DNA from: Candidatus Desulfatibia vada
GTDB taxonomy: Bacteria; Desulfobacterota; Desulfobacteria; Desulfobacterales; UBA11574
Length of the DNA stretch: 64,000 nt
Assembly: GCA_014383215.1 (NCBI GenBank)
Contig: JACNIG010000247.1
Span: forward strand, 4,786 to 68,785
Direction of reading: 5' to 3'
Shown here: piece after piece, positions 2,326-59,329 of the stretch
Layout: the number at the start of each line of letters is the position of its first letter
Numbering within the stretch: position 1 is the first letter of the stretch
Notes under the pieces: model-generated
Databases searched by the model: none
Told to the model about the DNA's origin: nothing
What the model saw: the letters and a program-made list of their open reading frames with translations, nothing else
Translations under genes and position numbers: made by a program

Positions 2326-3720
2326 GAGTTATTGTCAAATGTTGTGTATGGCATTAGGCGGCGATCCGTTTTTCAATAATGCCGTCAACAAACTTTATTC
2401 CTCTGATTACTTCTCCAAGGCGCTCAGAATGGTGCAATCTGTTCCATCTTTTCTGAGCACAGCGACATAGCTGGAATGCCATGGTTAATACAGTTAAAGA
2501 TGAAAAACAGCTCCTGACCTTGTTCGTTCTCAGCCGGACGGTAGAAAACGTTGATTCTATCGGATTGGTCGTCCGAATATGTATCCAGTGTTCTGCCGGA
2601 AAATCGTAAAAAGTTAAAAGTACATCTCGGTCCTTTTGTAAACAGGCAGTGGCCTTGGGATATTTAGCCTCATAGGTCTGGGTAAACGCATCAAAATTAT
2701 GCTCGGCTTCAGCCTTGTTATCTGCCATCCAGATTTGATGTAATTTCTCTTTTGCCTTAGCCTGAAGGCTCTTTGGCAATTTATTTAAAACATTGGCCGT
2801 TTTGTGAACCCAGCATCTTTGCCAACGGGTTGTGTCGTATACCTTTGACAGAGCTTTCCAGAAGCCCAAAGAACCATCCCCAACGGCCAACTCTGGAGGC
2901 GTATGTAGCCCTCTGCGTTTTAGGTCGACAAGTACCTCAAGCCAGGACTGCTCGCTTTCCCGGAAGCCGCCTTCAATAGCGATCAGCTCTTTATGACCTT
3001 TATCTGTGGCACCGATAATGACCAGAAGGCATTGACGGTCATCCATGCGGACATTGCAGTATATTCCATCGACCCAGAAATAAACATAGCGCTTCTTTGA
3101 AAGATCACGCTGCTGCCACTTAACATATTCATCCTGCCAAACCGTCTTGAGCCGGCTGATGGTTGAAGCAGATAGACCCGGCGCATCTTTACCTAACAGT
3201 GCAGCCAGGGCATCGGTAAAATCTCCGGTGGAGATTCCTTTTAAATACAGCCATGGCAGGAAAGTCTCGATACTTTTGGTTTTCCTTAAATACGGCGGCA
3301 AAATGGATGAAGTGAACCTAACTCTGTCGTTGAGCGAATCAGGTTGCCGATCTCGAATACGAGGAGCCCTTACCGGAATCTGACCAATACCTGTTTGGAT
3401 CTCACGTTCCGGGAGATAGCCATTTCGTACAATTCGCTGACATCCTTTGTCATCCGATATGTCTTTGTATTGGCTTAAAAAAGTTTCTATTTCTGCTTCT
3501 AAAGCGGCGGATAAAAGGCGCCGGGCTCCTTGTCGTAAAATATCTGTAATGGGGTCATCGACAAATGGTTCTGGCTTTTTTAAATCGATTACATTATCTT
3601 TGGCCATGGTGGTGTTATCCTTTCATTTTGGTAGTTCAAAATGCCGAGCTGTTGCTTGCAAAACAATCGCTCGGAGGATACACCACCTAATCCCTTAAAC
3701 ACAACTTTTGATCATATCTC
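2326..3720 (-). mobile_element. IS256-family insertion sequence (~1395 bp), apparently intact
   Basis: It contains a single mutator-type transposase ORF. The imperfect terminal inverted repeats are GAGTTATTGTCAAATGTTGTGTATGG (left) and the reverse complement of the right end, GAGATATGATCAAAAGTTGTGTTTAAGG. It is flanked by the 9-bp direct repeat ACTGTCACC. Confidence 0.85.
2354..3607 (-). CDS. IS256-family (mutator-type) transposase
   Basis: 417 aa. The sequence is typical of IS256 transposases: ...YLPEREIQTGIG.., WVDGIY.., LLVIIGA...G.KE, RCWVHKTANVL, NPIES.F. Confidence 0.93.
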   Translation of the reverse strand: MAKDNVIDLKKPEPFVDDPITDILRQGARRLLSAALEAEIETFLSQYKDISDDKGCQRIVRNGYLPEREIQTGIGQIPVRAPRIRDRQPDSLNDRVRFTSSILPPYLRKTKSIETFLPWLYLKGISTGDFTDALAALLGKDAPGLSASTISRLKTVWQDEYVKWQQRDLSKKRYVYFWVDGIYCNVRMDDRQCLLVIIGATDKGHKELIAIEGGFRESEQSWLEVLVDLKRRGLHTPPELAVGDGSLGFWKALSKVYDTTRWQRCWVHKTANVLNKLPKSLQAKAKEKLHQIWMADNKAEAEHNFDAFTQTYEAKYPKATACLQKDRDVLLTFYDFPAEHWIHIRTTNPIESTFSTVRLRTNKVRSCFSSLTVLTMAFQLCRCAQKRWNRLHHSERLGEVIRGIKFVDGIIEKRIAA

Positions 3721-5001: not shown

Positions 5002-7143
5002 TCAGCCGCGCATCCAAGCGTGATACCGCTCCACCCAGCTAAGGAGTTTTTCCGGTGCATTGGCTTTCTTCCATTGGCCGGCGGCAAATTTGTTGGCTTC
5101 CGCCAAGGTGGGATAGATATGAATGGTCCCCAGGATTTTATTCAAGCCCAACCCGTTTTTCATGGCAAGGATATATTCCGCGATGATGTCGCTGGCATGC
5201 GTCCCGACAATAGTAACACCCAAGATTTTATCGGTGCCGGGTTTTGTCAATACCTTTACCAGACCGTGATCTTCAGAATCGGCAATAGCCCGGTCCAGAT
5301 CGTCGATACCGTAGGTTGTGACCTCATAGTCCGTGTTGGTTTCCTTGGCTTCCAGTTCATTTAAACCGACACGGGCAACCTCGGGATCCGTGTATGTGGC
5401 CCAGGGAATGACGCGGTAATCGGCCCTGAACGATTTGAATCTTCCAAACAAGGCGTTTACCGAAGCATACCATGCCTGGTGGGCGGCGGTGTGTGTAAAC
5501 TGATAGGGTCCGGCAACATCGCCGGCGCAAAAAATGTTGGGATAATTCGTTCTAAGAAATTCATCGGTCTCTATGGTACCGTTGCGCTCTATCGCAACCC
5601 CCAGCTCTTCCAGACCAAAGCCTTTGGTATTGGCTACACGACCAACGGCAACCAGAATTTCGTCAAATTCAACAGAAACATCCTCTCCGTTATAATCGCA
5701 GATCAGGGTTTTTTGATCGCCGTCAACCCGCACCTCCTTGGCGCGATGATTGGTAAGCACACGCACGCCTTCCTGCTCAAATTTATTTTTCACAAGTTCG
5801 GAGATTTCTTCATCTTCGCGCAACAGGATGCGGGGTGCCATCTCGACCTGGGAAACCTGTGCACCTAAGCGGGCAAAAGCCTGGGAAAGCTCGCAACCAA
5901 TGGGCCCGCCGCCTAAAACAACGAGCCGTCCGGGGAGTTTGCGAAGCTGCCAGACATTGTCGGAAGTCAGGTATTCGATTTTATCCAGCCCCGCAATGGG
6001 GGGAACAAAGGGGCGCGCGCCGGTAGCAACAACGATATTGCGGGTAGTAATAACCTTGCCGTTCACTTCGACGGTATAGGGTGAAGTGACCATGGCTTCA
6101 CCCTGGATGCAATCCACACCAAGTTCGGTATAACGCTCCACAGAATCGTGAGGTTCAATTTTTTTAATGATCCTCTGAACCCTCTCCATGACATCGGCAA
6201 AGTCAAATTCAATTTCACCGCGTTTAAAACCAAATTCGGCCGACCGCCTGGCATACGATAACATTTTTGCGGATCTAAGCAGTGCTTTGCTCGGTACGCA
6301 GCCGGTATTCAGGCAGTCACCCCCCATTTTGTGCTTTTCGATCAAAGCCACTTTGGCCTTTACTGCCGCTGCAATGTATGCCGTCACCAGTCCCGCCGAT
6401 CCCGCGCCGATGACTACAAGATTGTAGTCGAATTTTTGCGGGCGGGTATAGTTGGCCAATACCTGGCGTGCTTTTATAAAGGCTACAAGCTTTTTGGCTA
6501 CCAGGGGAAAAATGCCAAGCAGCACAAAAGATAACAAAATTTCGAAAGAAAGAATCCCCTTGAGCGACTCGATCTTTACTAACTGAGTGCCGGCATTGAC
6601 ATATACGAAAGTGCCGGGGAGCATACCTACCTGACTTACAATGTAAAACATAACCGTACGGATGGGGGTCAGTCCCATTACAAGATTAATGACAAAAAAC
6701 GGAAAAATAGGCACCAACCGCAATGTAAAAAGATAAAACGGCCCGTCCTTTGTAAACCTCTCGTTAACCGCTTTGAGCTTATCACCGAATTTATTTTGGA
6801 CATAATCTCTCAGCAGGAATCGGGATACCAAAAAGGCTAAGGTTGCGCCGATGGAACTTGCAAAAGAAACCATAAGCAGCCCTGTCCAGATGCCAAAAAG
6901 GGCTCCTCCTGCCAATGACATTACGGTGGCACCCGGCAGGGACAAGGCCGTGACCGCAATATACATGGCCATATAGCCACCCACCGTCAGCGCCTGATTA
7001 TTAGCATAGTAATTTTCAAACACTTGCTGTTGGGACTTCAAATGCGTTAAGGTAAGGTATTGCTGCAGGTCGAATGCATAGAAAAGGTATGCCAGCAGGA
7101 CAATCGCCAATAAAAGAATAATTTTTGACCATTTGGGTTTCAT
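5002..7143 (-). CDS. fusion of a TVP38/TMEM64 (DedA/SNARE-associated) membrane domain with an FAD-dependent pyridine nucleotide-disulfide oxidoreductase
   Basis: The ORF track gives 744 aa; the likely start is MKPKWSK at 7143. The N-terminal ~230 aa are multi-TM. These are followed by VVIGAGSAG, the redox-active GGDCLNTGCVPSK, VLGGGPIGCE and a C-terminal dimerisation domain. Confidence 0.85.
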   Translation of the reverse strand: MKPKWSKIILLLAIVLLAYLFYAFDLQQYLTLTHLKSQQQVFENYYANNQALTVGGYMAMYIAVTALSLPGATVMSLAGGALFGIWTGLLMVSFASSIGATLAFLVSRFLLRDYVQNKFGDKLKAVNERFTKDGPFYLFTLRLVPIFPFFVINLVMGLTPIRTVMFYIVSQVGMLPGTFVYVNAGTQLVKIESLKGILSFEILLSFVLLGIFPLVAKKLVAFIKARQVLANYTRPQKFDYNLVVIGAGSAGLVTAYIAAAVKAKVALIEKHKMGGDCLNTGCVPSKALLRSAKMLSYARRSAEFGFKRGEIEFDFADVMERVQRIIKKIEPHDSVERYTELGVDCIQGEAMVTSPYTVEVNGKVITTRNIVVATGARPFVPPIAGLDKIEYLTSDNVWQLRKLPGRLVVLGGGPIGCELSQAFARLGAQVSQVEMAPRILLREDEEISELVKNKFEQEGVRVLTNHRAKEVRVDGDQKTLICDYNGEDVSVEFDEILVAVGRVANTKGFGLEELGVAIERNGTIETDEFLRTNYPNIFCAGDVAGPYQFTHTAAHQAWYASVNALFGRFKSFRADYRVIPWATYTDPEVARVGLNELEAKETNTDYEVTTYGIDDLDRAIADSEDHGLVKVLTKPGTDKILGVTIVGTHASDIIAEYILAMKNGLGLNKILGTIHIYPTLAEANKFAAGQWKKANAPEKLLSWVERYHAWMRG

Positions 7144-16015: not shown

Positions 16016-16627
16016 TTATTTCTCGCTCCGATATACTTCTTCAAAAAGTTCTTCAGAAGTAGTAATCGCACTATTACGTTGCATGGCTGCGGCAATCATC
16101 CGCTTTGCATCGCTGACTCTATAGCCCAACTGACCGACAAGTACATCCATGACCTGTTTGGCAGCATCCTCCTCTACCGGCATCTTTGCTTTCTCCGCTT
16201 TGCGGATTAATGCAAACTTGTCCATCTTACCTTCAAGGGTGGCTATTATTTTGCGAGCAGTCCGTTCACCGATTCCTTTTAATTGCTTTAGCTTTTGTAC
16301 ATCTTTGGCCTCTATGGCCCTGGCAATCTCGCGCACAGAAATATCCAGGGCCTTAACCGCCTTCATGGCGCCAATGGCTTCTACCGAAATAAAATGTTGA
16401 AAGAATTCTTTCTCGACTTCAAGATTAAAACCGATCAGTACCGGCTTGGGTTGGCGCTCGGTCTGCTGGTGAAAAATATAAAGAGATATCTTTTCGCCAA
16501 TAGATTTTGTTCGCAAGGTCTCCATCACAAAGACGGGCAGTAAAACCTCATATCCAACCTGGTTGGCCAACAGGAGTATCCTGTCTCCCTCCTTTTTCAA
16601 CAATGTGCCTTCAAGGTAACCGATCAT
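16016..16627 (-). CDS. ruvA: Holliday junction DNA-binding protein RuvA
   Basis: 203 aa: MIGYLEGTL..., with the HhH motifs ...LKQLKGIGERTARKI. Confidence 0.95.
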   Translation of the reverse strand: MIGYLEGTLLKKEGDRILLLANQVGYEVLLPVFVMETLRTKSIGEKISLYIFHQQTERQPKPVLIGFNLEVEKEFFQHFISVEAIGAMKAVKALDISVREIARAIEAKDVQKLKQLKGIGERTARKIIATLEGKMDKFALIRKAEKAKMPVEEDAAKQVMDVLVGQLGYRVSDAKRMIAAAMQRNSAITTSEELFEEVYRSEK

Positions 16628-17109
16628 TATCTTTTTTTAAAACGAAACAGGCCCAAAAGCGCTAAACCCATAGCATCGGAAGCATGGTAAGGCCGAATAG
16701 GTGTTTGCAGTTTTAATAAATGCCGCACAGCCTTTTCAAGCTGCTTTTTGCTGGCATTGCCGTTTCCCGTCAATATCTGCTTGGCCTCGCGTACGGGTAC
16801 TTCGGCAACCGGTACGTTAGTCTTACACCCGGCAAGCAGAACAACACCGCTAACCTTCCCTAAGGTAATGCCTGCCTTTGGAAATTTTTCAACGGAAAAA
16901 ACGTCTTCAACTACCATGAGATCCGGCTTTGTATCCTCCAAAACCCGTATTAGTCTTGAATAAATCTGTTCAAGGCGATGTGGCAAAGATATATTGCTCG
17001 AAGTATTAATACTGCCGTAGGAAAAGCCATCTATCTTAAGCCCGCCTCCCCTGACGATTCCAAAACCAGTAGCAGCCAACCCTGGATCTATTCCGACAAT
17101 CGTTACCAT
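16627..17109 (-). CDS. ruvC: crossover junction endodeoxyribonuclease RuvC
   Basis: 160 aa: IVGIDPGLAATGFGIV..., MVVEDVF, ASKKQ, ...HASDAMGLAL. Confidence 0.95.
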   Translation of the reverse strand: MVTIVGIDPGLAATGFGIVRGGGLKIDGFSYGSINTSSNISLPHRLEQIYSRLIRVLEDTKPDLMVVEDVFSVEKFPKAGITLGKVSGVVLLAGCKTNVPVAEVPVREAKQILTGNGNASKKQLEKAVRHLLKLQTPIRPYHASDAMGLALLGLFRFKKR

Positions 17110-17126: not shown

Positions 17127-17196
17127 GGATACTGGATACTGCATACTGGATACTCGATACTCGATACTGGATACTCGATACTCGATACCGGATACT
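17127..17196. repeat. tandem heptanucleotide repeat, 10 copies of (G/C)GATACT
   Basis: The copies read ggatact ggatact gcatact ggatact cgatact cgatact ggatact cgatact cgatacc ggatact. The repeat starts 18 nt upstream of the ruvC start codon. Confidence 0.9.
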
Positions 17197-17225
17197 AAAT
17201 AACTCAGTAGTCGGGAAGTTTTTTT

Positions 17226-17462
17226 CCATAATGCTTGGAAAATTAGCGAAATGGATGATCAGATTTTAAAGCGTGTGCTGTTTGAGTATATTAAGGATCG
17301 TTAGAAAGAACAGACGTATTGCCAAAAGCTGCCATGGCAAGCGATCACCAGTCGTTTTACAAAATAATTAATATTATTGCAAAAGCTTCTGTTCTTTCTT
17401 TACGAACCTTTATATACGAGTTCATACGGTTTAAAATATGATTATCCATTGAGCGGTCTTGC
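17226..17462 (+). repeat. ~237-bp long-hairpin repeat element, copy 1 (MITE-like or structured-RNA family)
   Basis: About 90% identical to the copies at 24463-24699 and 27764-27999. Its ~65-nt arms are GCG(A/C)AATGGATGATCAGATTTTAAAGCGTGTG...TTAGAAAGAACAG and CTGTTCTTTCTTTACGA...CGGTTTAAAAT(A/C)TGATTATCCATTG(A/C)GC. It is nested in an outer inverted repeat, CTCAGTAGTCGGGAAGTTTTT (17203-17223) paired with AAAAACTCCCCGACTACTCAAA (17466-17487). Confidence 0.85.
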
Positions 17463-17499
17463 AGCAAAAACTCCCCGACTACTCAAATAACTTTACATT

Positions 17500-18366
17500 T
17501 TAAGGCTTTAACCTTTTTAATTTTTGTTTTGCGATCTTGGCTTCATTCGATTCTGGATATTTTTTTACCAGTTCCGTTAGAATCAGACGGGTGTTAGCTT
17601 GGTCGCCAAGGCTGGAAAAGGCAAAACCCTGCTTGAGGAGAGAGGCCGGAACTTTATTTCCTTTTGGATATTTTTCTATGACCTTCTGGTATTCTAATAT
17701 GGCTTTTTCATACCACTTTTCACGATAATAGGTTTCCCCAAGCCAAAATTGAGCATTATCAGCCTGGGGTGATTGCGGATATAATTGCAGCAACTGTTGA
17801 AACTCTTCCCGGGCTGTTTCAAAATCACTTTGAGCAAAAGCCTGCTTGGCCGACTTGTAAATTTTGCCTGCTGAAAGTTCTTCTTTAGAAGGAATGTCTG
17901 ATGTTGTCTGGGGCTCTTTTTCAAGTTTTAATTCAGATTTTGTTGTTTCAAGATTAAGGTACAGTTCTATATGTACAATCCGATCCATATTTGCGCTTAT
18001 CATCTGCTCAATTCGATCCAGTTGTTTTTTTTGTTTGCCTTTTGAATCTTCAAAAGCCTTAATTTTCTGTTTGAGCAGATATTCCGTTTCTTCCAGCTTC
18101 CCCCATAATACGCGGATCTCTCCTCTGAGCTGATCAATCAATACATTTTGGCCGGCAGATCGTTCTCTTAGATCCTCCCCGTTTTTAATGTATTCATCAA
18201 TACGCGAATCAAACTGCAGACTCCGTTGTTCTGTCGCGGCGCTACGCTCCTCGACCACAGACAGGCGATTGTCAAGGGTTAGAATATCCTGCTGACCTGC
18301 ACACCCCGGCAGTATTATCATCCCTAATAAAGCAAAAACAATGATTTGAAATGCACGTTGATTCAT
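17500..18366 (-). CDS. ybgF: tol-pal system protein YbgF/CpoB
   Basis: 288 aa with a signal/lipobox, an N-terminal coiled coil and C-terminal TPR repeats (FWLGETYY..., YPKGNKVPASLLK). It is the last gene of the tol-pal cluster. Confidence 0.9.
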   Translation of the reverse strand: MNQRAFQIIVFALLGMIILPGCAGQQDILTLDNRLSVVEERSAATEQRSLQFDSRIDEYIKNGEDLRERSAGQNVLIDQLRGEIRVLWGKLEETEYLLKQKIKAFEDSKGKQKKQLDRIEQMISANMDRIVHIELYLNLETTKSELKLEKEPQTTSDIPSKEELSAGKIYKSAKQAFAQSDFETAREEFQQLLQLYPQSPQADNAQFWLGETYYREKWYEKAILEYQKVIEKYPKGNKVPASLLKQGFAFSSLGDQANTRLILTELVKKYPESNEAKIAKQKLKRLKP

Positions 18367-23777: not shown

Positions 23778-24422
23778 ATGATGAATTGGCTGATAAACAC
23801 CCTGGGAACTTCCATCGGAAAAAAGCTGATGATGGCCATAACCGGCCTCTGTTTCTGCTGCTTTTTGATTATTCACCTTGCCGGCAATCTAACTCTATAC
23901 GGCGGCAAAGATCTTTTTAACGCTTACGCCGAGCACCTGCATTCATTGGGACCGCTTCTTACTATATCTTCATGGATCCTTTTGACCCTGGCGATCATCC
24001 ATGTATTGACAGGTGCAATACTCTTTTATCAAAATTATAGATCAAGGCCGGTCGGATATGCTGTCAAAAAAAGAGCCGGTGGCCGCAGCCTGGGGTCGGC
24101 AACCATGCCGTACACCGGTTTTGTTCTGTTTGCATTTATCATTTTTCACCTGGTCAATTTTCATTTTACGGATAAAACCAACACGACCATCTATCAAATT
24201 GTCGCCGGTGCATTTGCAGACCCGGTCTATGTTTTCATATATATTGCCGCCATGATCGTTGCGGCAATTCATGTCAGCCATGGATTCTGGAGTGCTTTTC
24301 AGACCATCGGGGCCAATCATCCCAAATACATGCCCATTATCGCAGCAGTTAGTATCGTCTTTGCCTTGATTGTCGGAATCGGCTTTGGGTTTATTCCCAT
24401 TTACTTTACGCTTATCTTGTAA
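23778..24422 (+). CDS. sdhC: succinate dehydrogenase / fumarate reductase cytochrome b subunit
   Basis: The track ORF starts at 23706; MMNWLINTLG at 23778 is more plausible. The protein has five TM helices with conserved His residues and lies upstream of sdhA and sdhB. Confidence 0.85.
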   Translation: MMNWLINTLGTSIGKKLMMAITGLCFCCFLIIHLAGNLTLYGGKDLFNAYAEHLHSLGPLLTISSWILLTLAIIHVLTGAILFYQNYRSRPVGYAVKKRAGGRSLGSATMPYTGFVLFAFIIFHLVNFHFTDKTNTTIYQIVAGAFADPVYVFIYIAAMIVAAIHVSHGFWSAFQTIGANHPKYMPIIAAVSIVFALIVGIGFGFIPIYFTLIL

Positions 24423-24462
24423 AAATGAACTTCTCAGCAAATTCAGCAATCGGGGAGTTTTT

Positions 24463-24699
24463 ATCATAAATGTGTATGAATTAGCGCAATGGATGATCAG
24501 ATTTTAAAGCGTGTGCTGTTTGAGTGTATTAAGGATCGTTAGAGAGAACAGACGTATTGTGGAAATCTATCATCGCAAGAGATCACCGGTGGGTAAACAA
24601 ACCAATAGATTTTATTGTGAAGGCCTCTGTTCTTTCTTTACAAGCCTTTATATACGAGTTCACACGGTTTAAAATATGATTATCCATTGAGCGGCTTAA
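24463..24699 (+). repeat. ~237-bp long-hairpin repeat element, copy 2, inside the sdhC-sdhA spacer
   Basis: It is in the same orientation as copies 1 and 3 with near-identical arms. The left flank CGGGGAGTTTTT resembles the left flank of copy 1. Confidence 0.85.
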
Positions 24700-24786
24700 C
24701 ATCGACTCGCCCAACAACTTATTGAGAAATAACGTATTAATTAAACAATAGTTTGCAGTTTCAGCTCTGTTGCGAAAGGAAAAAAT

Positions 24787-26700
24787 ATGAAGCTTAATGC
24801 CAACATTCCCGGGGGACCGCTTGCTGAAAAGTGGGATCGACACCGTTTCGAACTTAAACTTGTTAATCCGGCCAACAAAAAAAAGTTTAACATCATCGTC
24901 GTCGGTACAGGGCTTGCGGGCGGCAGCGCCTCTGCATCCCTTGCCGAACTGGGCTACCGGGTCAAAACTTTTTGCATTCAGGACAGCCCACGGCGCGCTC
25001 ACAGCATTGCCGCCCAGGGAGGAATTAACGCCGCTAAAAATTACACTAATGAAGGCGACAGCATCCAGCGCCTTTTTTACGACACCATTAAAGGCGGTGA
25101 TTTCAGGGCCAGGGAGGCCAATGTCTATCGCCTGGCCCAGATAAGCAACAATATTATCGATCAATGCGTTGCCCAGGGGGTCCCCTTTGCCCGTGATTAC
25201 GGAGGACTGCTTGCCAACCGCAGTTTTGGCGGATCCCAGGTATCCCGGACGTTTTACGCCCGGGGACAGACCGGCCAACAACTCCTGCTGGGTGTTTACA
25301 GCGCTTTATCAAGACAGATTGCCGCCGGAAATATAGAAATGTTTGCCCGCCGTGAAATGCTGGATCTTGTTGTTGTAAATGGTCAGGCCAGGGGCATTGT
25401 CGTCCGCAATCTGATTACCGGCCAAATCGAACGTTTTGCCGCCGATGCCGTGGTGCTGGCCACCGGGGGCTATGGCAATGTGTTCTATCTGTCCACCAAT
25501 GCCATGGCATCCAATGTCAGCGCTACCTATCGGGCTTACAAACGCGGCGCTTTTTTCGCCAATCCCTGTTTCACCCAAATTCATCCAACCTGTATTCCCG
25601 TGCACGGGACCTATCAATCCAAACTGACATTGATGAGTGAAAGCTTAAGAAACGACGGCCGGGTCTGGGTACCGAAAACTCCCGGGGACAAACGCCCGCC
25701 CGGTCAGATTCCCAAGTCTGAAAGAGATTATTACCTGGAAAATAGATACCCGAGTTTCGGCAACCTGGTCCCGCGGGATGTGGCTTCGCGCAATGCCAAG
25801 GTCCAGTGCGACATGGGAAAAGGGGTGGGTGAAACCGGCCTGGCGGTTTATTTAGACTTTGAAGATGCCATCAAAAAGGATGGAGAAGCCGTCATTGCCC
25901 AAAAATACGGCAACCTTTTTCAGATGTATGCAAAGATCACCGGCTCCAACCCTTATAAAGAGCCCATGATGATCTACCCGGCGATTCATTACGCCATGGG
26001 GGGACTGTGGGTCGACTATAATCTTATGAGCACCATTCCGGGACTCTTTGTCCTTGGTGAAGCCAATTTCTCAGACCACGGCGCCAACCGTCTAGGTGCC
26101 AGCGCTCTGATGCAGGGATTGGCAGACGGCTATTTCATCATCCCATATACCATCGGCGGTTACCTTGCCGGCACGGCCCTGCCGGAAGTTACAACCGATC
26201 ATGCGGCCTTCGAATCTGTATCCGAGGAAGTTACAAACCTCGTCAACAAGCTGCTGGCCATAAACGGCAGTCGAACCGTTGATGATTTTCAAAGACAGCT
26301 TGGCAACATTCTCTGGGAGTACTGCGGAATGTCAAGAAACGAAGAAGGACTGTTAAAAGCGCAAAAACTTATCCAAGAACTGCGCGCAGAATTCTGGCAA
26401 AACGTAATTGTTCCGGGCTCTGACAAAGATTTTAATCAGAGTCTTGAGCGGGCCGGACGAGCCGCCGATTTTCTTGAGTTTGCCGAGTTGATGGTCATCG
26501 ACGCATACAGCCGCAAGGAATCCTGCGGCTGTCACTTAAACGAAGCCTATCAAACCGAGGACAACGAAGCCTTGCGTGACGATGAAAATTACAGTTACGT
26601 TGCTGCCTGGGAGTTTGCAGGAGATGACAAAGCACCGCATCTTAACAAGGAACCGCTTAACTTTGAAAACGTCGAATTAACCCAAAGGAGTTACAAGTGA
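24787..26700 (+). CDS. sdhA: succinate dehydrogenase / fumarate reductase flavoprotein subunit
   Basis: 637 aa: [27 protein letters not shown] (FAD-binding His), HYAMGGL. Confidence 0.96.
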
Positions 26701-27461
26701 TAAAAACCATCAATATTACACTAAAAGTCTGGCGCCAAAAGAGTTCCGACGTAAAGGGCGGTTTTGAATCCTATCATGCCACAAATATTTCCACCGACAT
26801 GTCCTTTTTAGAGATGCTCGATGTCGTCAACGAACAGTTGACCCTTAACGGCAAAGATCCGATTGCTTTTGATCATGACTGCCGGGAAGGCATCTGCGGG
26901 ATGTGCGGAGCCGTTGCCAACGGTCGCGCCCACGGTTCTGAAAAGGGAACAACCCTGTGCCAGCTTCATATGCGGCATTTTTCGGACCGGGACACCATTG
27001 TCGTCGAACCCTGGCGGTCAAGAGCGTTCAAGCTCATTAAAGATCTGGTGGTTGATCGCAGTGCCTTTGATAAAATTATTCAGGCCGGCGGATATGTTTC
27101 CGTCAATACCGGTGCGGCACCGGAAGCCAACACCATCCCCGTGCCCCAGGAAATAGCCGAAAAAGCAATGGATGCCGCGGCCTGTATCGGTTGCGGAGCA
27201 TGTGTTGCCTCCTGCCCTAACGCTGCGGCCATGCTTTTCGTCGGCGCCAAGATATCTCAACTTGCTCTGCTCCCCCAGGGAAAACCGGAAGCAGCCCAAC
27301 GTGCATTGTCCATGGTCAGGGCCATGGATGCACTCAATTTTGGAAACTGCACCAACGAAAGAGAATGCGAAGCAGAATGTCCCAAGGAGATATCAATTAC
27401 CAATATCGCCCGCATGAACCGCGAATTTATCAAGGCGGGGTTTATCTCAGCCATTAAATAG
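26697..27461 (+). CDS. sdhB: succinate dehydrogenase / fumarate reductase iron-sulfur subunit
   Basis: 254 aa with three Cys clusters: [22 protein letters not shown] and [12 protein letters not shown]. It overlaps the sdhA stop. Confidence 0.95.
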
Positions 27462-27487
27462 GAGTTGTCAAAATAGCATTCCGTTGC

Positions 27488-27682
27488 CGCCGCCGGATAA
27501 TTTCGTTTAGATCGGCAAGAACTCGCAAATAAAAGCGCGTAAAAGCGAACATGGCTATGGTTTTAAGAATATAGTGCCGTAATATGATTTTGTTCCCAAT
27601 GGAGGCACTTCGCTGATGTTCGCTTTAACGCGCTCTAAGTTGCTCAGACAGCTTCCCGACCTAAACGAAATCATCCGGCGGC
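27488..27682. repeat. ~195-bp long imperfect palindrome
   Basis: The left arm is CCGCCGGATAATTTCGTTTAGATCGGCAAGAACTCGCAAATAAAAGCGCGTAAAAGCGAACA. The right arm is TGTTCGCTTTAACGCGCTCTAAGTTGCTCAGACAGCTTCCCGACCTAAACGAAATCATCCGGCGG. Confidence 0.8.
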
Positions 27683-27763
27683 TTGCTAAAAACATGAACC
27701 CAAGTAACTCAATCGGAACATATTTATGACAACCGCTATACTTCAGCAGTAAGTAAGTATTTT

Positions 27764-27999
27764 ACATAATGATTTGTGAAGCAGCGCAATGGATGATCAG
27801 ATTTTAAAGCGTGTGCTGTTTGAGTGTATTAAGGATCGTTAGAAAGAACAGACGTATTGCCAAAATCTATCATCGCAAGAGATCACCCGCCGTTTATCCA
27901 ACCACTTAATATTATAACAATAAATTCTGTTCTTTTTTACGAGCCTTTATATACGAGTTCACACGGTTTAAAATCTGATTATCCATTGCGCGGTCTTAC
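27764..27999 (+). repeat. ~237-bp long-hairpin repeat element, copy 3
   Basis: Same family and orientation as copies 1 and 2. My base-by-base pairing of the arms shows mostly Watson-Crick pairs plus three G-U pairs when read as plus-strand RNA. Confidence 0.85.
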
Positions 28000-28013
28000 G
28001 GCGAAAATGCTCG

Positions 28014-28389
28014 ACCCCTGAATTTATTAACTCAAGTTTCGCAACCTCTATCATAAATAAATAAGAGGTCTGATTGGTATCTGCAGGCAAATGATGACTG
28101 TATTACGGAGGTCCTGTTGTTTTCGTAAAGGGCGATATGCCGGTCGGATACGAAAATGCTGCCCGTGGCCCGATATTTGGGATGGCTTCCGCGACTTCTC
28201 ATGATATATCAAAGCATTACACCATCCCAAATATCAGGCCACATCGCCATAGTGATATTCATATCGCCCTTTACGAAAATGACAGGACCGGAGTCAATCG
28301 GCGACAATGCTGCACTCTTTAAACTGTAAATAGTATCGCTGCCATCATAGTTTCGCGACTTTTTAGGGGTGCGAAACTTGAGTTATTAA
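28014..28389. repeat. nested palindrome (outer arms ~28014-28046 / 28366-28389; inner hairpin 28110-28289)
   Basis: The outer arms are TTAACTCAAGTTTCGCA and TGCGAAACTTGAGTTATTAA. The inner arms are GGTCCTGTTGTTTTCGTAAAGGGCGATATG and CATATCGCCCTTTACGAAAATGACAGGACC. Confidence 0.8.
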
Positions 28390-28895: not shown

Positions 28896-28920
28896 CTCTT
28901 TCCTACTAACAGTTCATTGA

Positions 28921-28981
28921 AACCTAAAACCTAAATCTTAAAACCCAAAACGTGATGAATTCGATTTTTTACGAATTCATC
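28921..28981. repeat. tandem 7-nt words (AAACCTA-like, x4) followed by a GATGAATTCG-loop-CGAATTCATC hairpin
   Basis: The words read aacctaa aacctaa atcttaa aacccaa. They are followed by gtGATGAATTCGatttttTACGAATTCATC, a perfect 10-bp stem at 28954-28981. Confidence 0.75.
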
Positions 28982-29317
28982 AATCTTGACATATATACTT
29001 TGGATACAGCAATGGCAAGTCTGATAGAAAACAATTTGAGCCAATTCTATTCGAAGAGTCTTGTCATTAGAAAAAGTTACATGTCGGCCTAAATCGTCAA
29101 AAAAATAGTCATACGGCGTCAATTTACTGCCGATGATGAAAGACTCTCTAAAGTCTGCAACAGCAGGCAGTCCCGCCGAGCAGGATCACCATGTCAAAGA
29201 TCGCCCAATTTGTATTACGCTCACCACCCCCTATCTCCATAAAAGCAGGAAGTTAAAACGCTTTCTTGCCTTTCCGGATTCAATCGGGGGACAAGGTGGC
29301 AACAGGGGCAAACAATG

Positions 29318-45830: not shown

Positions 45831-45949
45831 TTTGTATTTGGTGTTTAGTGTTTGGTTATTTAACAAGTTGGTATATCGCATATATTTGAAACAAAACACT
45901 AAATACTAAATACCAAACACCTTATGAATTCGACTTTTTACGAATTCAT
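45831..45949. repeat. word-built hairpin (AAATACT words) immediately followed by an ATGAATTCG-loop-CGAATTCAT hairpin
   Basis: TTTGTATTTGGTGTTTAGTGTTTGGTTATTT pairs with AAACAAAACACTAAATACTAAATACCAAACACC. It is followed by TTATGAATTCGACTTTTTACGAATTCATC, which abuts or overlaps the recR stop codon. Confidence 0.8.
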
Positions 45950-46548
45950 CAAATGTTGTGTCTGGTCTCCAGAGCTCTTTTCAAAGTAACCGCATCCACA
46001 TATTTCAGGTCCCCTCCCATGGGTACGCCTGATGCTATGCGCGTCACTTTGACGTTGCAACTTTCAAGACATTCGGCAAGATAAGATGCCGTCGCCTCCC
46101 CTTCAACATTTGTGCTGGTGGCAAGTATAACCTCTTGGACCTTGCCGGCCTCTACTCTTGATATAAGCTCTTTGATTCTGATATGCTCCGGTCCAACACC
46201 GTTCATTGGAGAAAGTACGCCCTGAAGGACATGATACCGTCCTTTGAAAGAACCTGCTTTTTCAACTGCAACCATATCGGCAATCTGTTCCACAACACAT
46301 AAAACGCTTGAAGTTCGGGTCGGGTCACTGCAAATACCACAGACATCGGCTGCACTCAGTGCAAAGCACTTTAAGCATATTCTGACTTTATCTTTGACCT
46401 CCAAGATGCTGCGTGCAAATTGTTCGGCTTCTTTTTGCGTTGCACGCATTACATGCATTGCAAGACGTTCGGCCGTCTTTTGTCCGACTCCCGGAAGCTT
46501 TGAAAAATTTTGTATTAATTGCAAAACCGGTAAAGGATAGTGGCTCAT
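45949..46548 (-). CDS. recR: recombination protein RecR
   Basis: 199 aa with the HhH segment LPGVGQKTAERLA, the zinc finger CLKC...CGIC, and a Toprim domain. Confidence 0.96.
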   Translation of the reverse strand: MSHYPLPVLQLIQNFSKLPGVGQKTAERLAMHVMRATQKEAEQFARSILEVKDKVRICLKCFALSAADVCGICSDPTRTSSVLCVVEQIADMVAVEKAGSFKGRYHVLQGVLSPMNGVGPEHIRIKELISRVEAGKVQEVILATSTNVEGEATASYLAECLESCNVKVTRIASGVPMGGDLKYVDAVTLKRALETRHNI

Positions 46549-48536: not shown

Positions 48537-48628
48537 ATAGACACTTCTCGCTTAATAGATCAGATTTGAGAAAAAACTCCCCGAATGCTCAATTAATTAC
48601 GTTTTAAGAGCGGCGCAGCCGCGTTATA

Positions 48629-48650
48629 CAAAATCGCTAAACGATTTTAT
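48629..48650. repeat. AAAATCG-loop-CGATTTT small hairpin (REP-like family), copy 1
   Basis: CAAAATCGCTAAACGATTTTAT lies immediately 3' of tRNA-Ser(GGA). Confidence 0.75.
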
Positions 48651-48739
48651 GGCGGAGAGAGAGGGATTCGAACCCTCGGTACCTTTACAGCACACACGAT
48701 TTCCAGTCGTGCTCCTTCGGCCAGCTCGGACATCTCTCC
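48650..48739 (-). tRNA. tRNA-Ser (anticodon GGA)
   Basis: Read by hand on the minus strand: GGAGAGATGTCCGAGCTGGCCGAAGGAGCACGACTGGAAATCGTG...long variable arm...GGTTCGAATCCCTCTCTCTCCGCCA. The anticodon loop is CT-GGA-AA, and CCA is encoded. Confidence 0.9.
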
Positions 48740-48743
48740 GCTT

Positions 48744-48797
48744 ATAAAATCGCAAAGCGATTTTGTAATTGCCAATAAAATCGCTAAACGATTTTAT
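48744..48797. repeat. two more AAAATCG-loop-CGATTTT hairpins between the two tRNA-Ser genes
   Basis: ATAAAATCGCAAAGCGATTTTGT (48744-48766) and ATAAAATCGCTAAACGATTTTAT (48775-48797). Confidence 0.75.
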
Positions 48798-48886
48798 TGG
48801 CGGAGAGGGCGAGATTCGAACTCGCGGAGGCAATTAACCTCAACAGTTTTCGAGACTGCCGCCTTAGACCACTCGGCCACCTCTCC
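48798..48886 (-). tRNA. tRNA-Ser (anticodon CGA)
   Basis: On the minus strand: GGAGAGGTGGCCGAGTGGTCTAAGGCGGCAGTCTCGAAAACTGT...long variable arm...GAGTTCGAATCTCGCCCTCTCCGCCA. The anticodon loop is CT-CGA-AA. Confidence 0.9.
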
Positions 48887-49016
48887 CAAACCATGTAAGT
48901 TGTCAATAGTGTTAAATCCAATATACCGCTTTAATATTTTCTGTCAACGATCTTGTCGGCAAACTTTTTAAACAGATTTCAGGATTTCCCTTGAACAACA
49001 TCATGCTTTATAGTAA

Positions 49017-49039
49017 TAAAATCGCTTCATGATTTTATA
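49017..49039. repeat. AAAATCG-loop-CGATTTT hairpin, copy 4
   Basis: ATAAAATCGCTTCATGATTTTAT is followed by a second small hairpin, CGCCCGCCTAGGCGGACG. Confidence 0.7.
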
Positions 49040-49105
49040 TAACGCCCGCCTAGGCGGACGCAAAAATAAATTGTTGAATTTGCAACTTTTTAATAGATTA
49101 ATGGA

Positions 49106-49311
49106 GGCAGCAGGTGATGAAAATTGGAAACGGGTGACTGTTTGAACACATTAGTGAGTCTTTAGAAAAAACAGCGGTTCGCTAACTTCTTCATTTTATT
49201 ATAGGCATAACGATTTAAAATTATTGCCATATTGATTAACCAACCCTGTTTTTTCTTTAGACTCACTTTTGCGTGAGTTTCAGCCGTTTTTAAATTTTAT
49301 TATCTGCTGCC
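49106..49311 (+). repeat. ~206-bp long hairpin, a distant relative of the 237-bp element
   Basis: The left arm is GGCAGCAGGTGATGAAAATTGGAAACGGGTGACTGTTTGAACACATTAGTGAGTCTTTAGAAAAAACAG. The right arm is CTGTTTTTTCTTTAGACTCACTTTTGCGTGAGTTTCAGCCGTTTTTAAATTTTATTATCTGCTGCC. It shares the GTG.CTGTTTGA...TTAGAAA.AACAG core with the 237-bp family. Confidence 0.7.
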
Positions 49312-49367
49312 GGGTTAGCGCAACAGAACTTGTTGACTACATTTCTAAGAGTTAGAAGGAATCAACC

Positions 49368-59079: not shown

Positions 59080-59107
59080 AAACGTTCGCCTTCGGCGAAC
59101 TCGAAAA

Positions 59108-59144
59108 AAAAGGAGAATCGGCTTAACCCGATTCTCCTTTTTTC
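59108..59144 (+). terminator. bidirectional-looking terminator hairpin
   Basis: The A-run is followed by AAGGAGAATCG-8 nt-CGATTCTCCTT and then TTTTT. Confidence 0.6.
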
Positions 59145-59217
59145 ATTTGACTGATTCGTTCGTATTTTTAGTAAGCCGTCGGATGGTTTCGTTTAGGTAG
59201 GGAAGTGGATAACCTGT

Positions 59218-59329
59218 ATTTCCCATGAGCAGAGCGGTTCAGGAACAAGGCATTTCAGGCCGAAGACGTAGTATTTTTACTTCGAGGGCTGAATAACACA
59301 GTTCCTGGACCGCTCTGCTTATGGGAAAT
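59218..59329. repeat. 112-nt hairpin with 29-bp outer stem
   Basis: ATTTCCCATGAGCAGAGCGGTTCAGGAAC pairs with GTTCCTGGACCGCTCTGCTTATGGGAAAT. That gives 27 Watson-Crick pairs plus 2 G-U pairs, and the G-U pairs form only in the plus-strand reading. The hairpin ends 6 nt from the pilB stop. Confidence 0.8.

Follow-up and report, generated by a model that had tools for sequence, protein, structure and literature searches.

A miniature inverted-repeat transposable element with a conserved hairpin core in Candidatus Desulfatibia vada and other Desulfobacterales

The repeat in the window, its ends and its mobility

The DNA analysed here (the window) is a stretch of 64,000 nt from contig JACNIG010000247.1 of Candidatus Desulfatibia vada, with ~45% G+C and a gene content typical of Desulfobacterales. 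A repeat, named F1, occurs in it as three direct copies of the same orientation (17241-17456, 24479-24694 and 27779-27994), which had been noticed in a previous sequence-only reading. A 25-nt arm motif gave six matches in the window, one in each arm of each copy, versus none in 100 shuffles. The pairwise identities of the copies were 85.9%, 86.4% and 88.3% over the limits used in that reading, whose estimate of roughly 90% was slightly high.

All three copies are intergenic, and their flanks are unrelated to each other. Copy 1 is located between ruvC (16627-17109, minus strand) and ybgF/cpoB (17500-18366, minus strand) and is antisense to both; copy 2 is located between sdhC (stop at 24422) and sdhA (ATG at 24787). 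The features of the three copies are the following:

17197-17204, no strand: left 8-bp target-site duplication of copy 1, AAATAACT (sequence; edge from the alignment of 22 full copies)
17205-17484, plus strand: copy 1, a full-length F1 MITE (miniature inverted-repeat transposable element) of 280 bp (nhmmer, 338 bits; edges from the 22-copy alignment; hairpin)
17205-17224, plus strand: left terminal inverted repeat of copy 1, CAGTAGTCGGGAAGTTTTTT (alignment; family consensus (C/G)AGCAGTCGGGGAGTTTT)
17244-17457, plus strand: core hairpin of copy 1, with left arm, variable centre (~17313-17385) and right arm (folds; superfamily alignment and covariation)
within 17244-17457, plus strand: internal loops of copy 1, left CTGTTTGAG and right GAGTT (folds, alignment)
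17465-17484, minus strand: right terminal inverted repeat of copy 1, reverse complement GAGTAGTCGGGGAGTTTTTG (alignment of full copies)
17485-17492, no strand: right 8-bp target-site duplication of copy 1, AAATAACT (sequence and alignment)
24427-24733, plus strand: copy 2, sense in the sdhCAB operon; F1-type limits 24444-24720
27744-28020, plus strand: copy 3, 3' of sdhB (profile match; degenerate termini)

In order to set the edges of the element, the full F1 copies (n = 22) were aligned together with their flanks. The edges were sharp and delimited a unit of 275-301 bp, mostly 276-280 bp, which starts with (C/G)AGCAGTCGGGGAGTTTT and ends with AAAACTCCCCGAC(C/T)(C/G)CTC. The extent of ~237 bp proposed earlier was therefore too short: the full unit has ~280 bp and copy 1 spans 17205-17484. 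Imperfect terminal inverted repeats of ~20 bp were found at both ends in most of the 22 copies. The 20-bp inverted repeat that had been described as an extra shell around copy 1 is present, but it corresponds to the terminal inverted repeat of the family, since it occurs in most of the aligned full members.

Perfect 8-bp direct repeats were found directly outside the ends of six F1 copies: window copy 1 (AAATAACT), L021 (ATATATTT), L041 (AACTAGTT), L011 (AATTAGAT), L031 (AGCTATCT) and L012 (AAATATTT). In five more copies, 6-7 of the 8 bases matched. The consensus of these target-site duplications, ANNTANNT, is palindromic, and the F1 targets are AT-rich and intergenic. No target-site duplication could be recognised for copy 2 at its F1-type limits, where the termini are eroded, nor for copy 3 at its eroded termini. 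The outer termini of copy 2, GAACTTCTCAGCAAATT and AACTTATTGAGAAATAAC, resemble the repeats of another family (F4, see below) and are flanked by GTAAAAAT / GTATTAAT (6 of 8 bases matching), which suggests that the F1 and F4 termini are related.

A search for further copies, as suggested in the sequence-only reading, yielded these edges and duplications and dozens of additional copies in Desulfobacterales genomes and sediment metagenomes, so that the window copies are not the only ones. When species-representative genomes were scanned with a degenerate arm motif, 41 genome loci were obtained, nearly all in metagenome-assembled genomes (MAGs) of Desulfobacterales/Thermodesulfobacteriota plus one single-cell genome, and many of them at contig ends; three loci of the first scan (L006, L014 and L028) were dropped as chance matches within coding regions. 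A profile made from the three window copies matched 46 places, 22 of them at full length, with ~300 bits in the forward versus ~70 bits in the reverse direction. The MAG JAQYVG alone contained at least 20 loci. The copies are dispersed over many genomes, in both orientations and with unrelated flanks, and truncated F1 right halves were found besides a solo end in the window (48571-48590).

Comparison with relatives showed sites devoid of the element. In three of them (YbgF 90%, 85% and 80% identical) the ruvC ATG directly follows the ybgF stop codon, with no spacer; there the window has a spacer of 390 nt, in which a 7-nt tandem array is followed by copy 1 with its two flanking duplications. 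The sdhC-sdhA spacer of a syntenic relative (SdhC 83% identical) is 18 nt long, ribosome-binding site included, versus 364 nt with copy 2 in the window, and in a third genome (84% identical) an F1-like element has inserted independently elsewhere in this spacer. At both junctions the relatives thus show empty sites; the window spacers hold further lineage-specific DNA, and a bare pre-insertion target is not visible. A look-up of the exact RuvC protein returned contigs of the same species only, every one of them filled or broken at the element. Presence and absence of the element were also seen for L038 versus L129 and L025 versus L105, where divergence of the intergenic DNA prevents placing the junctions to the base.

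The empty sites together with the 8-bp duplications establish the mobility of the element and exclude its origin by local segmental duplication of the flanks, which are unrelated. The duplications and the relatives' empty sites at copies 1 and 2 identify F1 as a MITE: it is small, has no transposase gene, and shows terminal repeats, 8-bp duplications, dispersed copies and empty sites. The MITE-like nature proposed from the window alone was in this way borne out. No match was obtained by BLAST against plasmid records. The superfamily pattern described below gave a single match against viral contigs, for which reason the element is not considered phage-associated.

Other insertions may be present in the same operons. 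The array beside copy 1 (17127-17196) is made of ten 7-nt tandem units (GGATACT / CGATACT; higher-order period 21) and is also lineage-specific, because the relatives lack the whole ybgF-ruvC spacer. Relatives without copy 1 have long spacers of their own, between ruvA and ruvB (L175 3461-3785 and L178 3410-3742; 324-332 nt) and between pal and ybgF (L177 965-1501; 536 nt). None of these three contains a superfamily element, and that of L175 contains a 26-nt inverted repeat; they suggest other insertions in these operons.

The superfamily and its hairpin core

Two weak matches of the window-copy profile, at 27492-27650 (minus strand) and 49109-49323, had the same size and architecture as F1 and different stem sequences. 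A right-arm pattern was built from the positions common to these weak matches; it gave five matches in the window versus 0 expected, and at least 119 metagenome loci. The metagenome matches group into nine or more multi-copy families, with some singletons besides; about a dozen of the singletons were discarded for their weak folds. In nearly all matches a complementary left arm was found 134-147 nt upstream of the right-arm motif; the element size is therefore constant. A hairpin core of ~215 nt is common to all of the at least nine families, and the terminal repeats are family-specific, with 20-30 bp outside F1:

F1: (C/G)AGCAGTCGGGG
F2: TATAGC...
F3 and F5: GTAACAYTTTAGC
F4: GTAACWTCTCAATAA
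F6: GCAATTCTAATTATGG
F9: CGGGCCTATCCC

Duplications of 8 bp were found in all five families with readable ends (F1, F3, F4, F5 and F9). Conserved motifs lie 28-48 nt from the termini, at a distance that varies.

The other superfamily sequences of the window are listed below; with copies 1-3, the 64 kb hold five full members, one F2 remnant and one solo end.

27459-27740, minus strand: F2 family element (profile match, 165 bits; core architecture as in F1, stem sequences and termini (TATAGC...) different)
48571-48590, plus strand: solo F1 right-end terminal repeat remnant, AAAAAACTCCCCGAATGCTC (terminal-repeat matches)
49082-49340, plus strand: diverged superfamily member, nearest F4 (102 bits; comparison with the F4 consensus; edges approximate)
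59150-59204, plus strand: F2 5' remnant, interrupted by a different palindrome (59218-59329)

The F2 element adjoins copy 3 with a gap of 3 nt, and the TAG stop codon of sdhB (27459-27461) falls within its terminal bases, so that the element abuts or overlaps the gene end. No target-site duplication was seen for the member at 49082-49340. The site of L150 orthologous to the 59150-59204 remnant carries a full, intact F2 copy.

Variants were also observed within families. In the F3 "mini" variants (L055, L089, L094, L109, L112 and L132) the arm partner lies upstream of the right-arm motif at a distance of only 49 nt, compared with ~144 nt otherwise; these are internally deleted, with ends and 8-bp duplications kept. 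An F1 subfamily (L003, L023, L025 and L032) has a 20-22-nt insertion, TTTATCCGCCTTTGGCGTGA, exactly in the GAGTT loop of the right arm, forming a small extra hairpin. L146 and L043 represent one orthologous site, with flanks 90-95% identical and F2 cores 80.6% identical that belong to different subfamilies, which suggests replacement, conversion or independent insertion at one site.

The only reading frame in the F1 element has 17 codons, in the left arm, and reaches 47 amino acids (aa) in one diverged copy. A coding role was rejected for it, as F2 has an in-frame stop codon at the same register (read by eye); the statement that no open reading frame (ORF) is conserved thus holds.

Each window copy folds as a hairpin, in agreement with the long imperfect palindrome first described; the centre, also as described, is conserved in its 5' half and variable in its 3' half. 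For copy 1 with its flanks, folding energies of -103.2 kcal/mol (plus strand, z = -9.4) and -94.7 kcal/mol (minus strand) were obtained, and the hairpin has ~95 bp per arm. The values for copy 3 were -91.1 kcal/mol (z = -8.3) and -85.0 kcal/mol, respectively.

Covariation, an analysis that the sequence-only reading had called for, was examined in a MAFFT alignment of 65 non-redundant superfamily cores. RNAalifold predicted 43 pairs, 32 of which showed compensatory changes. Paired cells amounted to 92.1%, versus 72.0% after column shuffling (a value of 92.1% was reached in 0 of 500 shuffles) and 32-46% with the partners slid by 1-3 columns; the covariation score was 0.583, versus 0.235 shuffled and ~0.12 slid. 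The left-arm loop CTGTYTGAG is near-invariant across families, although it lies outside the search pattern, and the right loop is GAGTT. Two U·U positions, in AUUAG / CUUAU and in GUUAA / UUUAC, and a G·U in GGAUGAU / AUUAUCC recur across families, as read from the alignments.

The plus strand of the core is the more stable one in 87 of 96 distinct instances; the mean difference is 9.7 kcal/mol, and nearly every family shows it. The 65-core alignment contains 236 G·T cells versus 41 A·C cells, and within the F1 core 17 pair sites have G·T variants versus 4 with A·C. In the F1 terminal repeats A·C is as frequent as G·T, with no wobble bias. The G·U pairs counted in the plus and minus folds were 6 and 1 for copy 1, 9 and 5 for copy 2, and 4 and 5 for copy 3. 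The plus-strand polarity of G·U pairs, which had been claimed from copy 3, is therefore strong across the family and superfamily but not clear in that copy alone.

In order to locate the constrained part of the element, 30 distinct F1 copies were each compared with the consensus. The divergence was 3.3% in a left-arm segment that was never part of the search pattern, 3.3-5.1% in the other arm segments, 17.3% in the centre and 15-17% in the outer terminal-repeat regions, the arms being 4-5 times better conserved than termini or centre. Two orthologous pairs were informative for a comparison of core and flanks, the latter mostly coding: the core was 95.0% identical versus 94.9% and 90.8% for the flanks in the first pair, and 97.2% versus 95.5% and 87.2% in the second. 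The divergence profile and these pairs identify the hairpin arms, and not the ends, as the most constrained part, which is unusual for a MITE.

The placement of the elements is biased. Across families, 87 flanking genes are on the strand opposite to the element versus 53 on the same strand, and the contexts were tandem-antisense (23), tandem-sense (14), convergent (8) and divergent (6). The GC skew of the flanks on the element plus strand was negative at 53 of 75 loci; the two biases are confounded with each other. According to these biases, read-through mRNAs and the lagging-strand template would mostly carry the weaker, minus-strand hairpin. Behind the orientation bias there may be selection against having the stronger hairpin in such contexts, or else a preferred direction of insertion.

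Possible function of the core and origin of the element

The best explanation overall, to which we give a probability of about 0.8, is a non-autonomous DNA transposon (MITE) of ~280 bp, without coding capacity, with a hairpin core that is more stable as the plus strand. A DDE-type transposase acting in trans, as candidate partner, would move the element via 8-bp staggered cuts, and the core would be under selection as a single-stranded plus-strand hairpin.

We prefer, at roughly even odds, the reading that this core works as RNA. It may form a stable stem-loop in host transcripts, for example between sdhC and sdhA, or be a transcript of its own, and would then resemble bcr1, ERIC and the Correia repeats. 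The family of structured RNAs that had been considered as an alternative to a mobile element finds support in the covariation, the conserved loops and the wobble bias; it is not supported by any promoter, terminator or Rfam match. A bolder version is possible but tentative: the ~215-nt core might be a strand-specific structured RNA or single-stranded DNA module, carried, or re-equipped time and again, by MITEs with unrelated ends. It would then behave as a mobile structured-RNA gene spreading through Desulfobacterales, in which the loops CUGUYUGAG / GAGUU and the G·U and U·U positions would form a putative protein-binding site.

Several results weigh against parts of this explanation. Regarding movement, no transposase or autonomous partner was found beside any copy or between distant repeat pairs, in ~1 Mb of loci. 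Terminal-repeat matches outside the known copies were remnants only and revealed no autonomous partner; inverted terminal-repeat pairs 0.45-6 kb apart occurred in four cases, and the ORFs listed for three of them were housekeeping or toxin-antitoxin genes, with no transposase. Clustering of the ORFs of at least 150 aa from 160 loci gave common paralogues only and no recurrent transposase-like cluster. In addition, the F2 family showed no recognisable target-site duplication.

Regarding an RNA role, promoter and terminator predictions in the elements did not rise above the shuffle background. A TTTATA-N17-TAAAAT site recurs in the F1 right arm but shows no conservation across the other families. 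The Rfam search at gathering thresholds, which had also been suggested, returned two tRNAs only in the whole window and no family or named element matching the repeat; a permissive scan of copy 1 gave noise (best E = 0.17, a plant microRNA hairpin). The predominantly antisense placement means that read-through transcripts usually contain the weaker hairpin. The wobble bias among rare F1 variants was modest, with G·T versus A·C counts of 18 versus 10 in the core, 17 versus 15 in the centre and 15 versus 13 in the termini. Finally, covariation in a DNA palindrome can also come from template-switch correction between the arms.

One locus deserves separate mention: in L025, at 1670-2265, two small ORFs, one antitoxin-like (73 aa) and one PIN-like (130 aa), have a terminal-repeat-like match (1109-1122) on one side and an F1 copy truncated at its 5' end (2887-3021) on the other. 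The location of these toxin-antitoxin-like ORFs between F1 ends is probably a coincidence.

A serious rival to the RNA role, though in itself an unlikely one, is that the core matters as single-stranded DNA, its plus strand folding in replication or transposition. The hairpin could bring the ends together or be recognised by the transposition machinery, and the strand-specific features would then serve the propagation of the element and not a host function. A single-stranded DNA hairpin would give the same G·U strand signal as RNA. In DNA hairpins, too, G·T is the most tolerated mismatch. This rival also fits the presence of the conserved features in family consensuses with different terminal repeats, as expected of a need in propagation, the missing promoters and terminators, and the GC-skew bias, which is at least as strong as the gene-orientation bias but is confounded with it. 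On the other hand, the known single-strand (HUH) transposons insert without duplicating their target, unlike these elements with their duplications of 8 bp, and a core needed for movement only should decay uniformly, whereas the arms of resident copies are 4-5 times better kept than their termini.

Even less probable is that the element is selfish foldback DNA and nothing more, without any function in single-stranded form. Its arms would then serve as long subterminal regions for transposase binding, held alike by DNA-level processes such as template switching or gene conversion between arms or copies, and the asymmetry would be ancestral. MITEs commonly fold into long hairpins of no known function (PMC3184786, PMC10969869), covariation alone cannot tell an RNA from a DNA palindrome, and the wobble bias within F1 is weak. 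However, the asymmetric loops and the U·U and G·U positions persist in at least nine families despite rewritten stems, and correction of the palindrome would erase such mismatches instead of keeping them; this conservation of mismatches makes neutral foldback DNA the less likely account. The excess of G·T over A·C cells and the greater plus-strand stability also argue against it, and so does the variable distance (28-48 nt) between motifs and termini, unlike that of fixed protein-binding sites at transposon ends.

The idea that the repeats are not mobile, but are chromosomal genes for structured non-coding RNA or products of local segmental duplication, retains hardly any probability: in spite of the strong structure and covariation, and of three window copies in the same orientation within 11 kb, it is refuted as the sole explanation by the duplications and empty sites, and the terminal repeats, the unrelated flanks, the dispersal over many genomes and orientations, the truncated and solo-end remnants and the absence of an Rfam match also speak against it.

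The preferred reading, a MITE with a selected plus-strand hairpin, has consequences at several levels. It is usually the ends that define a MITE; in this superfamily they vary between families, and an internal hairpin with non-canonical pairs is the most conserved part and is strand-specific. With an RNA role, abundant marine sulfate reducers would harbour a widespread mobile RNA that acts in regulation or binds protein; a single-stranded DNA role would mean an unusual need in a transposition pathway that still makes 8-bp duplications. In practice, the elements break metagenome assemblies of Desulfobacterales, many copies lying at contig ends, and they reside within operons (sdhCAB, tol-pal/ruv); annotating them accounts for long spacers that otherwise look odd, and could help binning and scaffolding.

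Further repeats were observed in the window. An unrelated nested palindrome at 28110-28289, ~90 nt downstream of copy 3, has arms of 30 nt (93% complementary) and, inside these, arms of 21 nt (95% complementary), and may represent another hairpin repeat family. A dispersed repeat, D2, occurs at 28917-28983 and 45886-45952 (79% identical), with a related copy in L038 (~5960-6010) beside an F1 element; it consists of AAACC/TAAA-type short repeats followed by a hairpin, GATGAATTCG...CGAATTCATC. At 59106-59143 a perfect bidirectional terminator-like hairpin, AAAAAAGGAGAATCGG...CCGATTCTCCTTTTTT, precedes the F2 5' remnant, and the palindrome that interrupts this remnant (59218-59329) has 44-nt arms. 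Several copies of a small hairpin, AAAATCGCTAAACGATTTTAT, and its variants are located at 48630-49045 and ~59060; they flank two tRNA genes (48653-48886) and recur elsewhere.

Comparison with known systems

The MITE as a kind of element is well known; to our knowledge, a deep superfamily in which a strand-specific hairpin is better conserved than interchangeable ends is undescribed. In the literature we found no description of MITEs in Desulfobacterales. PATE and REP/RAYT elements have subterminal or short hairpins and are without terminal inverted repeats or target-site duplication. An origin as an IS200/IS605-derived PATE or as REP/RAYT was rejected, since the elements described here have terminal repeats, 8-bp duplications and arms of ~95 bp versus ~35 nt.

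Insertion sequences of the IS66 family have terminal repeats of 20-30 bp that start with GTAAGCG, and direct repeats of 8 bp (PMC11946415). The families F3, F4 and F5, which start with GTAAC or GTATT and have 8-bp duplications, are IS66-like in this respect, unlike F1, which ends in (C/G)AG and not in GTAA. The neighbourhoods of the copies showed no gene for an IS66 transposase. A resemblance of four bases and a duplication length makes IS66 a lead as possible mobilising partner for the GTAAC-ended families only. The IS1595 family has a constant 8-bp duplication and diverse ends, and one of its subgroups may resemble the F9 end.

Like F1, the ERIC elements of Enterobacteriaceae and the Correia elements (NEMIS) of Neisseria are imperfect palindromic intergenic MITEs; they are co-transcribed with neighbouring genes. 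Their size is ~104-157 bp, their target motifs are of the TA type, and they have no sequence similarity to F1. We know of no deep superfamily of ERIC or Correia elements in which the stems were rewritten while non-canonical pairs stayed conserved. The orientation of these elements affects the fate of the mRNA, ERIC giving rise to an RNase E site (PMC3184786). There is thus precedent for MITEs with compensatory changes at the RNA level or with effects on mRNA (PMC3184786).

By analogy, bcr1 of the Bacillus cereus group offers the best example of a MITE whose RNA fold is under selection. It was reportedly studied by Økstad in 2004, Klevan in 2007 and Kristoffersen in 2011. It is described as mobile, non-autonomous, with target duplications and with compensatory changes read at the RNA level (PMC3184786). 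It differs from F1 in its size (~155 versus ~280 bp), in its duplications (5 versus 8 bp), in its Firmicutes host and in that its transcription has been shown.

Judged by its described features, the closest element appears to be Chunjie of Geobacter uraniireducens Rf4. We know of no report of a Chunjie superfamily with a common core and differing termini. Reported by Chen et al. in 2008, Chunjie is an A+T-rich MITE of 178-235 bp with terminal repeats of ~21 bp and a hairpin of -98 to -130 kcal/mol, one copy of which lies within an operon without destroying it (PMC3184786, PMC10969869). It has direct repeats of 9 bp (PMC3184786), versus 8 bp in F1, F3, F4, F5 and F9. It shares with F1 a host from the former Deltaproteobacteria, similar terminal repeats and a very stable hairpin, and its copy within an operon is comparable to copy 2 of the window, inserted in sdhCAB.

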